Virus record (IMG/VR): IMGVR_UViG_3300035670_000018
Location: 103,364 to 167,363 of that record
Reading direction: 5' to 3' (one strand)
DNA from: a virus
Length of the DNA: 64,000 bases
Shown: positions 10,257 through 19,266 of the stretch, in pieces
Numbering within the stretch: the stretch's first letter is position 1
How the letters are laid out: every line of letters starts with the position of its first letter
Notes under the pieces: generated by a model
The model's input: only the letters and a program-made list of their open reading frames with translations
What the model was told of the DNA's origin: nothing
The model's database searches: none
Made by a program: the position numbers and the translations under genes

Positions 10257-10787
10257 ATGGTGAACTCAGTGAATATTGATATCTATGGCAAGTCTAAGCA
10301 TATGTGCAAAGCGGAAATCAAGTTCGCTACTGCATTCTTTGCTCAGTATCTAATGGGTACCAGACTCGCAAAGAATCTTGACATTGAGATTCGGATTGAG
10401 GGTCAGGGTCGCGCAGAGGGGCATTGTAATCCTCTTGATGGTGAACGGCGCCCTCGGTCCTTTGAGATTGGTATCAGACCTGGAATGCAGCGGTACAAGA
10501 TGCTCCAGTGCCTCGCGCATGAGATGGTGCATTTGAAGCAGTATGCTAAGGGTGAGTTGTCCAATGAGTTGATCACTGCAAAGTGGCAGGGAAAGACTTA
10601 CAAGCTTACCAACTCAATGGAAGACTATTTCAACTGGCCTTGGGAAATTGAAGCTTATGGTCGTGATCGGTCGCTTTATCTGTTCTATCAGGTGATGTTG
10701 AACTCGGAAAAGATCAAGTTCAAGAATGGTAAGATGTATATGAAGGGTAAGCTTTTCAAGCTTGACAAGGCTAAGAATACCAAGTAA
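10257..10787 (+). CDS. Zincin-like metallopeptidase
   Basis: AHEMVHLKQ plus PWEIEAY; start may be the GTG near 10269. Confidence 0.75.
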   Translation: MVNSVNIDIYGKSKHMCKAEIKFATAFFAQYLMGTRLAKNLDIEIRIEGQGRAEGHCNPLDGERRPRSFEIGIRPGMQRYKMLQCLAHEMVHLKQYAKGELSNELITAKWQGKTYKLTNSMEDYFNWPWEIEAYGRDRSLYLFYQVMLNSEKIKFKNGKMYMKGKLFKLDKAKNTK

Positions 10788-10796
10788 GATATACGC

Positions 10797-11024
10797 ATGA
10801 TCAAGACACAGTGGAAAATCAAGATTGGCGACATGATCCATGTTCGCACTCATTACAAGTATGGTGTGATGGATAATGTCCATATCAAGTCTGGAAAGGT
10901 AGTGCAAAGTGAGCGACATGATCCCGTTGGTACTTTTCGTTTGTATACAGGTAATCCTCAGTACCCCGTTTCTCTTATCGCAGATGAACGGGTCACTGGC
11001 ATTAAGCTTCGTGAGGTCGCGTAA
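10797..11024 (+). CDS. Hypothetical protein
   Basis: Downstream of TTGACA-N17-TAAGAT. Confidence 0.5.
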   Translation: MIKTQWKIKIGDMIHVRTHYKYGVMDNVHIKSGKVVQSERHDPVGTFRLYTGNPQYPVSLIADERVTGIKLREVA

Positions 11025-11380
11025 TGGCTAGTATTCATGTACCGTCAGGTAAACTGACATGGGAAGAAAAGTTGGAGATCCGCAAACACGCGCTAGAGTG
11101 TGCCGCTAGGACGTATCAAGGACAAGGCGCATTTAATGCAGAAAACGTTACCAATCGTGCTGCAATCTTTGAAGACTACTTGATGGGGAAGAATGATGGT
11201 TAAGTCTTATGATGTAAGTTTTCATCTTGACGAATCTCTTGCAGGATGGTATCTTTACTGCTTTGAGGACGATGATGTAGTCCATGAGCAGTTCTTCCGC
11301 GACCGCGATGATGCTCACGCTATGGGCCATCGCTTTCTTGATGGACTGTATGTCAAGGGTTTCCCGATTGAGGAACTGGC

Positions 11381-11611
11381 ATGAGAAAGCAGAGTCTTTG
11401 GAATCGATTTCTTAACTGGTACAGTCCAGTTTGGGGTATGCTCGTTCCGCTTGTCATCGCAGTAGGCTTTCTTTTTGTTCTAGAATATAAAGCAGATGAA
11501 CAAAAGCTTGCATTTTCTAATGCCTGTGCTACAATGGGTGGTGTCGCATTGATTGGACGTAACGGAACAAAAGTTTGCTTCAAGCAGGATGTTGTCCTGT
11601 CTGTACACTAA
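11381..11611 (+). CDS. Small membrane protein
   Basis: One hydrophobic segment. Confidence 0.5.
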   Translation: MRKQSLWNRFLNWYSPVWGMLVPLVIAVGFLFVLEYKADEQKLAFSNACATMGGVALIGRNGTKVCFKQDVVLSVH

Positions 11612-11628
11612 ATAAAATACAGTTTAAT

Positions 11629-11711
11629 GGCCACGTAACCGATGGCGGCTTCTACCCGCTTAACCGTAACTGGAGTTGAAAATGGGAGTTCGAATCTCTC
11701 CGTGGTCGCCA
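11629..11711 (+). tRNA. Atypical tRNA-Arg(TCT), no D-arm, expanded variable region
   Basis: GGCCACG/CGTGGTC acceptor, GGCGG-CTTCTAC-CCGCT, canonical T-arm, CCA. Confidence 0.75.
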
Positions 11712-11733
11712 TTTCAAATTATGGAGAAAGTGA

Positions 11734-12000
11734 ATGTCTGCACCGAAGACCAAGACCAAGTACACTTCTAAGGGTGAGCGTGAAGCGAACCGTAGCTTGT
11801 CAAAGGCTATCAAGCGTGATCGCACAGTCATTGAGAAGTCTCAGATCAAGCAGAAGGCATGGTTGAAGGGACAGAACCCTTGGATCGTCGTGCCGAATGA
11901 GAATACAGCCGATACTAAGGCACGGTTTGTTCGCGTTCGTGCTGAGACTGAGTGGGGTGATCCGCGCAAGGGCTTCATGTTCGGCGCGATGAAGGACTAA
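11734..12000 (+). CDS. Basic hypothetical protein conserved in T4-like phages
   Basis: GGAG SD; YTSKGER...AWLKG.NP. Confidence 0.6.
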   Translation: MSAPKTKTKYTSKGEREANRSLSKAIKRDRTVIEKSQIKQKAWLKGQNPWIVVPNENTADTKARFVRVRAETEWGDPRKGFMFGAMKD

Positions 12001-12007
12001 GATTAAC

Positions 12008-12084
12008 GCCCCCTTAGCCCAGCGGTAGGAGGCACCGGACTTAAAATCCGTACAGGGACAGTTCGAATCTGTCAGGGGGTACCA
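12008..12084 (+). tRNA. tRNA-Leu(TAA), short variable loop
   Basis: Cloverleaf, CCA. Confidence 0.9.
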
Positions 12085-12089
12085 AATTT

Positions 12090-12165
12090 GCATCTGTAGC
12101 ACAGCGGTTAGTGCTATCGGCTCATAACCGATTGGTCCTTGGTTCGAATCCAAGCGGATGCACCA
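12090..12165 (+). tRNA. tRNA with CAT anticodon (Ile2 or Met)
   Basis: Cloverleaf, ATCGG-CTCATAA-CCGAT. Confidence 0.9.
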
Positions 12166-12170
12166 AATAA

Positions 12171-12260
12171 CGGAGTGAGACTAAGAGTCAGAGAGGACTT
12201 ATAAACCTTTTGCAGCCGATTACTGCCTTTGAGGTGGAGCGTTACCACCCACTCCGACCA
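12171..12260 (+). tRNA. Atypical tRNA-Ile(TAT)
   Basis: CGGAGTG/CACTCCG acceptor, CT-TAT-AA loop, long variable arm, T-loop AGCGTTA, CCA. Confidence 0.65.
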
Positions 12261-12265
12261 ATATT

Positions 12266-12342
12266 GCCCTCGTAGCCCAACTGGCAGAGGCAGCAGATTC
12301 AAATCCTGCTCAGTGTAAGTTCGACTCTTACCGAGGGCACCA
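12266..12342 (+). tRNA. tRNA-Leu(CAA), short variable loop
   Basis: Cloverleaf, CCA. Confidence 0.88.
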
Positions 12343-12351
12343 AAAAAAAAG

Positions 12352-12392
12352 TTGACAAAAACATAAAATCCAGCTAGGATGTTGTATAAATA
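12352..12392 (+). promoter_or_regulatory. Tandem sigma70 promoter and T4-type late promoter upstream of the leader ORF
   Basis: TTGACA-N17-TAGGAT (12352-12380); TATAAATA (12385-12392). Confidence 0.8.
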
Positions 12393-12416
12393 GAATACAG
12401 TTTAAGAAAGACGGAA

Positions 12417-12503
12417 ATGAAACCCATTCTACCTCCATTTACAATTAATCAAGAAACATGCCAGCCATCATGGGCAGGTGTGATGAGGGGTTCTATGTAT
12501 TAA
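12417..12503 (+). CDS. Putative attenuator leader peptide MKPILPPFTINQETCQPSWAGVMRGSMY
   Basis: 28-codon ORF between promoters and terminator; its 3' end carries the antiterminator strand. Confidence 0.7.
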   Translation: MKPILPPFTINQETCQPSWAGVMRGSMY

Positions 12504-12527
12504 GTCTTAGTACAGACTTAGTTTCTT

Positions 12528-12566
12528 AGAACCCCGAAGCCAAAAGTTTCGGGGTTCTTCGTTTTT
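12528..12566 (+). terminator. Intrinsic terminator of the attenuator
   Basis: AGAACCCCGAAGC-CAAAA-GTTTCGGGGTTCT followed by TCGTTTTT. Confidence 0.85.
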
Positions 12567-12570
12567 ATAG

Positions 12571-12645
12571 TTGCGTCCAGTGCATAGCAGATATGCGAAA
12601 AAAGAATAAGAAAAGACTTGAAATTGGCTGCGACAAGCACTATAT
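12571..12645 (+). promoter_or_regulatory. Repeated promoter copy 3, upstream of the main tRNA array
   Basis: TTGC-N7-GCAT-N7-ATGC-N20-CTTGAA-N15-CACTATAT. Confidence 0.75.
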
Positions 12646-13013: not shown

Positions 13014-13100
13014 GGACCAGTCGCCTAGTGGCTATGGCAGCAGACTCTTAATCTGTCGTGAGAAATCACATCGTGGGTTCGAGTCCCACTTGGTCCTCCA
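13014..13100 (+). tRNA. tRNA-Lys(CTT) with long variable arm
   Basis: Cloverleaf, GTGA-GAAA-TCAC arm, CCA. Confidence 0.88.
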
Positions 13101-14345: not shown

Positions 14346-14431
14346 ACTACCTTATCCAAGTGGTTGAAGGAAGGCGGCCGATAACCGTCTGGCGAAAGCC
14401 CGCGTTTGTTCGAATCAAACAGGTAGTACCA
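14346..14431 (+). tRNA. tRNA-Ile(GAT) with long variable arm and C33
   Basis: Cloverleaf, GGC-GAAA-GCC arm, CCA. Confidence 0.85.
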
Positions 14432-14960: not shown

Positions 14961-15044
14961 GGACTGGTTACCGTAGTGGCGAACGGCGCTGACTTTTAAT
15001 CAGCTATGCAAACACCGTGGGTTCGAGTCCCACCCAGTCCTCCA
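14961..15044 (+). tRNA. tRNA-Lys(TTT) with long variable loop
   Basis: Cloverleaf, CCA. Confidence 0.88.
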
Positions 15045-15447: not shown

Positions 15448-15541
15448 GCATCCGTATCCCCCTTGGCTACGAACCAAGAGTAAGGTAACTGGAGATGGTC
15501 AGAGATGACTAATGCAGGTTCGAATCCTGTCGGATGCTCCA
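15448..15541 (+). tRNA. Atypical tRNA-Arg(ACG), no D-arm, expanded variable region
   Basis: GCATCCG/CGGATGC acceptor, CTTGG-CTACGAA-CCAAG, canonical T-arm, CCA. Confidence 0.75.
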
Positions 15542-15557
15542 CTAAAGGAAAACAACA

Positions 15558-15920
15558 ATGAAACTATTAATAGCAGCCTTTGCTGCCCTATTTTTAATGA
15601 CAGCACCCAGTAATGCTACAACAATGGTAGCATCATGGTATGATTGTGTTAAGCCTGGTGAATGTAGTAAACATAAGATTACTGCAAGCGGGCAAAAATT
15701 CAATCCAAATGCTTTAACAGCAGCACACAAGACATTGCCTTTCGGCACAAGACTGAGAGTTACACACAAAGGAAGATCGGTAATAGTAGTAATTAATGAT
15801 AGGGGCCCGTTCATTAGAGGCAGACATTTAGACCTATCAAGAGCAGCAGCAAGAAAGATTGGCTGCGGTGGAGTTTGCACAGTCAAGGTTGAAATCTTAG
15901 GAAAGAAGAAGAAAAGATAG
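15558..15920 (+). CDS. RlpA-like (double-psi beta-barrel) lytic transglycosylase, secreted
   Basis: Signal peptide; ASWY...TASGQKF...TAAHKTLPFGT...INDRGPF...LDLS. Confidence 0.9.
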   Translation: MKLLIAAFAALFLMTAPSNATTMVASWYDCVKPGECSKHKITASGQKFNPNALTAAHKTLPFGTRLRVTHKGRSVIVVINDRGPFIRGRHLDLSRAAARKIGCGGVCTVKVEILGKKKKR

Positions 15921-16586: not shown

Positions 16587-16620
16587 GCGTCTTGGGAGGT
16601 GATGGTCACCTCACCGCTCT
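16587..16620 (+). pseudogene. 5' half of a tRNA gene cut off at the anticodon loop
   Basis: GCGTCTT-GG-GAGG-TGATGGTCA-CCTC-A-CCGCT-CT, then the endonuclease promoter; no 3' half found. Confidence 0.65.
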
Positions 16621-16640
16621 CTGAAATACTAAATAGTAGT

Positions 16641-17213
16641 ATGAGATACACCATTTACAAAACGACTAATACAGTCAACGGCAAATACTACATTGGTAAA
16701 CATCAAACCATTGATCCAATGGATAACTATCTGGGTTCAGGTAAGGCTATTGCTAATGCCATAAAACTACACGGTAAAGATTCTTTTGTGAAAGAAGTTC
16801 TGTTTGATTTTGATACAGAAGAGGAAATGAACAGTAAAGAGCGTGAACTTATTACTGAAGATATCGTAAACGATCCGATGTCTTACAATTTAGGTGTCGG
16901 TGGAGAAGGCGGTCCTCACTTCAGTGGAAGAAAACATACAGACGAAACGCGAAAAAAACAGAAAAACGCAAATACAGGTCGTGTCTATGATTACGATAAG
17001 TATAGCGAAGAAAGAAAAAAGACCTTCTTTACTGAAGGCAATGAATACTGGAAGAAAAGAAAAAAGAACTTTCATACGGAAGAGAGCAAACAAAAGATTC
17101 GAGAAAAAAGGTTATTACAACCAACACCGAATTTAGGGCGCAAAATGTCTGAGGAACAAAAAGAAAAGATTCGTCAGACGCTTCTAAAGCGAAACAAGAA
17201 TATGCCTGTGTAG
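16641..17213 (+). CDS. GIY-YIG homing endonuclease (SegB-like position in the tRNA array)
   Basis: TIYKTTN...YYIGKH...YLGSG; NUMOD3 repeats; TACTAAATA at 16627. Confidence 0.9.
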   Translation: MRYTIYKTTNTVNGKYYIGKHQTIDPMDNYLGSGKAIANAIKLHGKDSFVKEVLFDFDTEEEMNSKERELITEDIVNDPMSYNLGVGGEGGPHFSGRKHTDETRKKQKNANTGRVYDYDKYSEERKKTFFTEGNEYWKKRKKNFHTEESKQKIREKRLLQPTPNLGRKMSEEQKEKIRQTLLKRNKNMPV

Positions 17214-17289: not shown

Positions 17290-17495
17290 TGCTAACTCCG
17301 ACGGGAGTTGGCCGAGTGCAAGGAAATGACTGCTCACCAGGAGCGGTTAACTTGGCTAGATGGTGTGGTGCCCGTGCGCGACTGACGAGAGTCAGAGGCG
17401 TATCGTCTCCGACCAAGAGAATCTAGGCTGACACGTGGCAGATACAAGGTATCTTGGTCGTGTCTTGTGGGTGTACCCCAGTCCCACCTCACCTT
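17290..17495 (+). ncRNA. About 200-nt structured RNA, manA-motif-like
   Basis: Several hairpins; CGACCAAGA/TCTTGGTCG; GTGGG/CCCAC end; GTGCAAGG and GGTGTGGTGCCCG resemble the manA RNA from memory; adjacent to tRNAs. Confidence 0.55.
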
Positions 17496-18816: not shown

Positions 18817-19266
18817 ATGACTAAGTTTTTTGTTATGTTGGCAGTGATGGCTGCTGCAATCTTTATGCTTGCTACTGGCACTAGAGCAGGAGTTGAACCT
18901 CTTGGTGAGCATGAAGTGATTATTAGGATTGACAAGTCCGATCAGAAGATGTACGTAGAAACGCCTACTGATTATTTTGAGTGGGATGTTTCTACTGGTC
19001 GTAAGGGTTATCGTACTCCTGTTGGCGTGTTTCAGCCCTATCTTTTGAGACCGATGCATTACTCAAGCAAGTATAATAACGCGCCGATGCCTCATTCAAT
19101 TTTCTTTCATGGTGGTTATGCAATTCATGCGACAACAGAAGTAAAGAAGCTTGGTCAACCCGCATCACATGGATGTATTCGTCTTAGCCCTCAGAATGCT
19201 CGTTGGTTGTATCGCATCGTAAACGAGTACGGCAAGTATAATACATATATAGAGATTACAGAATAA
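18817..19266 (+). CDS. L,D-transpeptidase (YkuD family), secreted
   Basis: Signal peptide; VSTG..TP.G; GYAIH...ASHGCIRL. Confidence 0.92.
   Translation: MTKFFVMLAVMAAAIFMLATGTRAGVEPLGEHEVIIRIDKSDQKMYVETPTDYFEWDVSTGRKGYRTPVGVFQPYLLRPMHYSSKYNNAPMPHSIFFHGGYAIHATTEVKKLGQPASHGCIRLSPQNARWLYRIVNEYGKYNTYIEITE

Follow-up and report, generated by a model that had tools for sequence, protein, structure and literature searches.

What is encoded by a gene that has the acceptor, anticodon, and T arms of a tRNA-Arg and no D stem-loop at the place where one is expected? Such a gene, a putative tRNA-Arg of 94 bases as read from the sequence, lies at 15448-15541 (+) of a 64,000-nt stretch of viral DNA (the window, to which coordinates refer unless a contig is named), in a tRNA array whose tRNA-Cys gene ends 6 nt upstream on the same strand. 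We consider it likely that the gene encodes a functional, topologically permuted tRNA-Arg(ACG), in which the segment spanning positions 10-21 has been moved into the variable loop.

Layout of the gene at 15448-15541 and its detection

Re-reading the sequence bore out what a preliminary description of the locus had reported, namely perfect acceptor, anticodon, and T arms, an encoded CCA, and a short TATCCCC linker (Table 1). As in a canonical tRNA, the 7-bp acceptor stem is followed by a discriminator and a 3′ CCA, and the 7-nt anticodon loop has U33 and a purine at position 37. However, only 7 nt occupy the place where a canonical tRNA forms the D stem-loop hairpin between positions 9 and 26. 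This linker may be read as positions 8 and 9, the 3′ strand of the D-stem, and position 26, and its length equals 2 + 4 + 1 canonical positions. The 35-nt inter-arm region (15479-15513) contains GGUAACUGGAG as well as a 6-bp hairpin capped by a GAGA loop, in agreement with the motif and small hairpin reported earlier; RNAfold predicts this variable hairpin (15496-15511) together with the three long stems. The connector AGUA at the start of the inter-arm region would correspond to positions 44-46, and in nearly all members of the family presented below it measures 3-5 nt, mostly with A at its end. A10 lies unpaired opposite C25 (an A.C mismatch), both in this gene and in the ACG type of the family. 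Judged from the sequence only, U8, A14, R15-Y48, and G18 G19 are all present, in permuted order. A scan for the arm layout followed by CCA returned three matches in the window versus two in total over 20 shuffles.

Table 1. Coordinates of the parts of the ACG gene, as read here, and of the second permuted gene in the window
Feature	Position in window	Strand	Remarks
Acceptor stem, 5′ strand, positions 1-7	15448..15454	+	Perfect 7-bp complement of 15531-15537
7-nt linker UAUCCCC	15455..15461	+	Read as U8, A9, N22 C23 C24 C25 C26
Anticodon arm, 5-bp stem and loop CUACGAA	15462..15478	+	Loop 15467-15473, anticodon ACG 15469-15471
Connector AGUA	15479..15482	+	Putatively in place of variable-loop positions 44-46
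AGG, putative relocated D-stem 5′ strand	15483..15485	+	Read as positions 10-12; G12-C23 and G11-C24 pair
UAACUGGA, putative relocated Arg-type D-loop	15486..15493	+	Read as U13 A14 A15 C16 U17 G18 G19 A20
Variable region with hairpin 15496-15511	15494..15513	+	RNAfold; last base U 15513 read as U48
T arm, 5-bp stem and loop UUCGAAU	15514..15530	+	T-loop of UUCRA type, as in canonical tRNAs
Acceptor 3′ strand 15531-15537, discriminator U 15538, CCA 15539-15541	15531..15541	+	CCA encoded
Second permuted gene, tRNA-Arg(UCU)	11629..11711	+	8-nt linker, anticodon 11651-11653, 65 bits with the family model
CCG and UAACUGGA of the tRNA-Arg(UCU) gene	11664-11674	+	Putative relocated D-arm strand

Standard scanners miss the gene, as the preliminary description had anticipated. 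ARAGORN called 27 tRNAs in the window, with this gene not among them and none for arginine, and Rfam RF00005 (gathering threshold, 29 bits) gave no plus-strand match at 15448-15541, neither at the gathering score nor at E values up to 10. We take the gene to resemble E. coli tRNA-Arg(ACG); BLAST of the gene against E. coli genomes returned no match at E up to 1. The covariance model of the family described below scores it at 92.3 bits (E about 5e-19).

Several further features were noted in the surroundings of the gene. Unusual variable regions are not confined to this gene, as the ARAGORN lengths of further tRNAs in the array indicate: tRNA-Leu(UAA) and tRNA-Leu(CAA) are just 77 nt long and without a long variable arm, and tRNA-Lys(CUU) (87 nt), tRNA-Lys(UUU) (84 nt), and tRNA-Ile(GAU) (86 nt) are class-II-like; the stretches concerned are 12008-12342, 13014-13100, 14346-14431, and 14961-15044. 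An ORF within the array (16599-17213, +) has GIY-YIG and NUMOD3 motifs, the GIY-YIG match being below the Pfam cut-off, as in a Seg-like homing endonuclease, and could help to move tRNA genes between phages. A manA RNA motif (RF01745) was detected by Rfam at 17294-17495 (+) with 61.6 bits (gathering score, 55.2), and an ORF at 18817-19266 has a YkuD L,D-transpeptidase domain. Beginning 17 nt downstream of the ACG tRNA, an ORF of 120 aa (15558-15920, +) has a signal-peptide-like N terminus and a DPBB_1 (RlpA-like lytic transglycosylase) domain (E = 1.6e-25), and the order of tRNA followed by DPBB_1 ORF is repeated in related marine contigs. A conserved protein neighbor was considered and rejected because the DPBB_1 gene is confined to the marine T4-like lineage and the neighbors elsewhere are other tRNAs.

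Conservation, covariation, and wiring of the permuted family

Blastn of phage records found un-annotated matches in Xanthomonas phage X1, Stenotrophomonas phage DLP_6, and Microbacterium phage Zooman, and further searches identified Xanthomonas phages BUDD and XacN1 and Mesorhizobium phage Cp1R7A-A1 as carriers; the gene is un-annotated in 6/6 of these records. A motif pattern derived from the phage blastn matches was used to search IMG/VR, metagenomes, and species genomes. It matched 74 IMG/VR loci and 105 metagenome stretches, and a set of 185,579 bacterial and archaeal species, each represented by a single genome, yielded only three matches, all of which sit in dense phage-like tRNA arrays on MAG contigs. 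The permuted tRNA family is essentially viral. Pooling gave 109 distinct members of 76-96 nt, with 71 acceptor stems, 48 anticodon stems, and 24 T stems, a GC range from 36 to 68%, and carriers among the phages of both Gram-negative and Gram-positive hosts. A covariance model of the family gives its members 47-99 bits and separates them from roughly 1,300 canonical tRNAs in those loci, none of which exceeds 41 bits.

Covariation was computed on a 57-row model alignment of homologs, in which 95% of cells are standard pairs (as with all cell counts given here, inflated by the inclusion of related sequences) and both-sided changes occur in 20 of the 21 pairs. Compensatory changes were found in 7/7 pairs of the acceptor stem over the 57 homologs, with 100% of cells paired; the anticodon stem covaries in 5/5 pairs (98% of cells paired) and the T stem shows compensatory change in 4/5 pairs (100% of cells paired). 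None of 500 shuffles matched the observed pairing values, and slid registers were only 29-46% paired. The anticodon loop is invariant among ACG-type members, and 107/109 members encode CCA. At the discriminator, 58 members have U, 36 have G, 13 have A, and 2 have C. A variable-arm hairpin with differing stems is found at the same site in 18 distinct relatives and is absent from about 80% of members.

These results bear on the possibility that the gene is a decaying tRNA-Arg pseudogene, which lost its D-arm and gained an insertion. The silence of the standard tools would suit such a pseudogene, as would one relative, L063:2993-3122(+), apparently a broken copy or a chimera made by recombination: after an ACG-type permuted 5′ part it continues with roughly 50 nt of different, tRNA-like sequence, and its 3′ end is unpaired with the 5′ acceptor strand. 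However, decay would not leave 109 members spread over phages whose hosts are Gram-negative or Gram-positive, in which each stem shows compensatory changes, CCA is retained, and the core motifs are invariant. The covariation, shuffle, and slid-register results rule out both chance and a decaying pseudogene, and we give this explanation next to no weight.

The family also reveals how the segment 10-21 is wired. Immediately 5′ of the motif U-A-R-N(1-3)-G-G-A lie three bases whose partners are the linker's three bases ahead of its last one; in the gene at 15448-15541, nt 4 of the linker pairs with G12 and nt 5 with G11, the two bases directly 5′ of U13. Pairs 12-23 and 11-24 are present in 109/109 members and in 13 stem types, with CC/GG in this gene and GC/GC, CG/CG, CA/UG, CGG/CCG, CAC/GUG, and CAG/CUG in relatives, and the third pair, 10-25, is present in 16 of the 22 members with variant stems. 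Since the dominant ACG type shows no variation at the helix bases, all covariation of the D-like helix comes from the 22 other members. Neither RNAfold nor RNAalifold predicts this helix of 2-3 bp. The combination of base 15 with the base just before the T stem is A-U in 102 members, G-C in 5, and G-G in 2, the G15 set having been gathered with a pattern that left position 48 free, and the base before the T stem behaves as position 48. Moreover, A20 follows GG in 107/109 members.

The homologs support the original proposal of a rewired tRNA-Arg, in which a D-loop-like strand 3′ of the anticodon arm pairs with the 5′ linker, and they revise it in three respects. The D-arm, described at first as missing, appears instead to be split, with the linker representing positions 8, 9, and 22-26 and the downstream strand representing positions 10-21. 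The suggested pairing of TCC-CC in the linker with GG...GGA rests on a complementarity that does exist in this gene, but its register is not kept in relatives: among the 22 members with variant stems, the inner pairs (linker nt 6-7) are present in only 6 and 3, and the outer UCC/GGA pairs in 4, 21, and 7, the 21 reflecting a C that faces an invariant G. A better reading of the GG in CUGGA is as G18 G19, left free to contact the T-loop.

The minimal member, L034:3987-4062, has exactly 76 nt, with a linker of 7 nt (8, 9, 22-26) and an inter-arm stretch of 17 nt, which equals 12 (positions 10-21) plus 5 (variable loop). Judged by its sequence, this member equals a canonical tRNA whose segment 10-21 was taken out and reinserted within the variable loop. 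Circularly permuted tRNA genes that are processed afterwards are known from the red alga Cyanidioschyzon merolae, and the phage transcript could by analogy be a precursor that is rearranged or spliced post-transcriptionally to a canonical cloverleaf. We regard such a precursor as very improbable. The gene ends already form the acceptor stem with its CCA, so that circularization is unnecessary, and no single excision restores the canonical order because segment 10-21 lies 3′ of the anticodon arm. No conserved intron-like insert is present, and the 76-nt minimal member has nothing to remove. Furthermore, the pairing of the linker with the downstream strand and the 15-48 covariation have been selected in the permuted order.

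Probable arginine identity and the tRNA complement of the phage

Arg anticodons are found in 108/109 members of the family (ACG, 82; UCU, 15; UCG, 6; CCU, 4; GCG, 1), and the remaining one is GAU (Ile). The ACG anticodon of the gene at 15448-15541 conforms to the arginine combination of C35 with G36 or U36. In the canonical tRNAs of the same loci, the GG of the D-loop is followed by A in 37 of 43 Arg tRNAs versus 65 of 826 others, and the canonical Arg D-loops carry AACUGGA, like the relocated motif. The ACG gene likewise has the identity base A20, within GGA at 15491-15493. In E. coli tRNA-Arg, the discriminator at position 73 is A or G and is a minor identity element; the U at 15538 departs from this set.

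That the architecture is exclusive to arginine was considered and rejected, since a permuted tRNA with the Ile anticodon GAU is encoded at L092:4504-4584(+). This gene, on a contig of 36% GC, has the Ile-type loop CUGAUAA, U instead of A20, and discriminator A, and encodes no CCA. Other deviating Arg genes were also observed. A permuted gene of the UCU type at L085:5533-5617(+) has an anticodon stem around an 8-nt loop (UGUUCUAA) and may either read quadruplets or be defective. A second unusual class of Arg tRNAs from phages is represented by L022:749-817(-), L029:3168-3239(-), L038:1274-1345(-), L049:2384-2455(-), and L087:1568-1642(+). These genes are 69-75 nt long and without U8 A9, have a 3-bp CCG/CGG D-stem right after the acceptor and a GGAU-type loop; ARAGORN calls them and places the anticodon at position 28-33. 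The D-region seems to be readily remodeled in phage Arg tRNAs.

The source genome has 167,363 bp and is complete by CheckV, and its nearest blastn relatives are marine T4-like phages. In the whole genome, ARAGORN found 28 tRNAs for 19 amino acids, with Arg alone missing, and the family model found exactly two members, the ACG gene and the UCU gene, which are the sole predicted Arg decoders. CGU, CGC, and CGA together account for 50% of the Arg codons in 177 long ORFs and AGA for 41%, so that ICG and UCU would read 91-96% of the Arg codons. Phage tRNA inventories are therefore undercounted, as this phage appears to be without a tRNA-Arg and six GenBank records leave the gene blank, and the undercount biases studies of codon usage and of tRNAs in relation to host defense.

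Among other carriers, 60 IMG/VR loci are without a canonical Arg(acg) according to ARAGORN, and X1, BUDD, and XacN1 show none either. The notion that the permuted gene always replaces canonical Arg(ACG) was rejected because DLP_6, Zooman, and the metagenome contig L180 carry both, and the permuted form is thus not simply a replacement. On L180, a contig of 1,119,147 bp, a tandem Glu-Asp-Arg(acg) array at 10749-12644 holds three canonical Arg(acg) genes and one permuted ACG gene (11892-11970), along with tRNA-like elements uncalled by ARAGORN at 11364-11439 and 12277-12352.

The conservation, covariation, and genomic role of the permuted family are demonstrated by these observations. A member of the family might nevertheless be a tRNA mimic that does not decode and instead serves as a decoy or sponge for a host binder of tRNA-Arg (a tRNA-targeting nuclease, ArgRS, or TadA), or as a processing or regulatory element of the array. 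Its non-canonical architecture, to which tRNA models are blind, the canonical Arg(ACG) gene alongside in DLP_6, Zooman, and L180, and the unusual discriminator U in 58/109 members all fit a mimic, and phage tRNAs are known to neutralize tRNA-targeting defenses (PMC11464382, PMC11555353, PMC10264068). However, a decoy need not hold the sole Arg anticodons in a phage with tRNAs for the other 19 amino acids, nor fit the Arg codon usage of that phage, nor come as UCU, UCG, CCU, and GCG isoacceptors with intact 7-nt loops, U33, and A37. Likewise, the Ile version alters A20 and the discriminator along with the anticodon, as a charged adaptor would. On balance, we hold a mimic to be improbable. Against the functional permuted tRNA-Arg that we favor, we counted the U discriminator, the D-like helix of 2-3 bp that is not predicted thermodynamically, the A.C at pair 10-25 in this gene, and the presence of canonical Arg(ACG) in some phages as well.

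Proposed fold and comparison with known systems

In the mechanism that we propose for the permuted tRNA-Arg(ACG), the array would be transcribed polycistronically and the permuted tRNA cut out of the transcript like the neighboring tRNAs. The acceptor and T arms would stack in the usual way, while positions 22-25 of the linker would pair with the downstream positions 10-13 to form a D-like helix of 2-3 bp that extends the anticodon stem. As in a normal tRNA, one continuous 5′ strand, the 10 nt from position 22 to 31, would run through this helix and the anticodon stem. The open-ended D-loop would offer A14 to U8, R15 to Y48, and G18 G19 to the T-loop, in addition to A20 as the identity base for ArgRS, and by supplying these residues, the relocated D-loop would rebuild the usual L-shape. 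A34 is probably deaminated by TadA to give ICG, and the host ArgRS would charge the tRNA, which would read CGU, CGC, and CGA. The new chain junctions would run from 9 to 22, from 44-46 to 10, and from 20/21 to 47/48. In the canonical core, position 9 contacts the pair 12-23, 45 contacts 10-25, and 21 contacts 8-14; each new junction would thus join residues that are already neighbors there.

More tentatively, the permuted tRNAs may be translationally active with ordinary ArgRS, EF-Tu, and ribosomes and, at the same time, be kept (mostly as ACG/ICG) because their rebuilt D-region hides them from a factor that detects or inactivates canonical tRNA-Arg by way of the D-arm or the core, a combination that we think unlikely as a whole. 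In this joint reading, the evaded factor could be a host defense nuclease or a phage-made host shut-off enzyme. No nuclease specific for tRNA-Arg or the D-arm was found in the literature on phage tRNAs and tRNA-targeting defenses.

All known bacterial tRNAs are said to be cloverleaves (PMC11551756), and no description of the permuted layout was found in the freely accessible full texts searched. If the functional reading is true, bacterial cells would be using an exception, a natural and widespread family in which segment 10-21 is transposed. It would also mean that the L-shape can be built from another strand topology, and one could test directly how far ArgRS, RNase P, TadA, EF-Tu, and the ribosome tolerate it. 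In addition, the permuted scaffold could be a naturally evolved and possibly orthogonal chassis for genetic-code engineering.

Comparing the permuted gene with a canonical class I tRNA-Arg (RF00005; for example, the annotated Zooman tRNA-Arg(acg) at L003:450-522), the two share the 7-bp acceptor, the 5-bp anticodon stem, the CUACG core of the anticodon loop, a UUCGA-type T-loop, U8, A14, R15-Y48, G18 G19, and A20. Similarly, CCA is encoded in the phage arrays in both cases, and the minimal permuted member also has 76 nt. However, the permuted gene is without the D hairpin between 9 and 26 and scores below the Rfam threshold, and the four-way junction would become three-way because segment 10-21 is transposed 3′ of the anticodon arm.

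The order of segments also differs from that of the cloverleaf in the circularly permuted genes of C. merolae, in which the 3′ half precedes the 5′ half and a circular intermediate leads to a canonical tRNA. Whereas the acceptor ends are internal in the algal genes, the termini of 15448-15541 form the acceptor stem, and with normal acceptor ends and only an internal segment moved, the mature phage RNA must stay permuted.

D-armless animal mitochondrial tRNAs, such as human mt-tRNA-Ser(AGY) (PMC9427863) and the nematode armless tRNAs (PMC12221289), likewise have a short connector in place of the D hairpin. These molecules are truncated, have no contact between G18 G19 and the T-loop, and need adapted synthetases and EF-Tu. 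In the permuted tRNA, in contrast, the D-loop with G18 G19 A20 is relocated with none of it lost, the T-loop is canonical, and the molecule is not shortened, at 76-96 nt.

The aminoacylatable tRNA-like structures found in plant RNA viruses and the tRNA-like domain of tmRNA (PMC8127992, PMC10870377) also attain an L-shape with an elbow from a non-tRNA topology. Although recognized by synthetases, they are not anticodon-bearing adaptors, and they are parts of larger RNAs that are unrelated in sequence to the permuted tRNA. Allo-tRNAs with 8/4 or 9/3 acceptor/T branches, which occur in bacteria and phages, are likewise natural, non-standard, and found by sequence mining; they retain four arms in the usual order and have altered stem lengths alone, whereas the permuted tRNA changes the order of the arms (PMC5389517).
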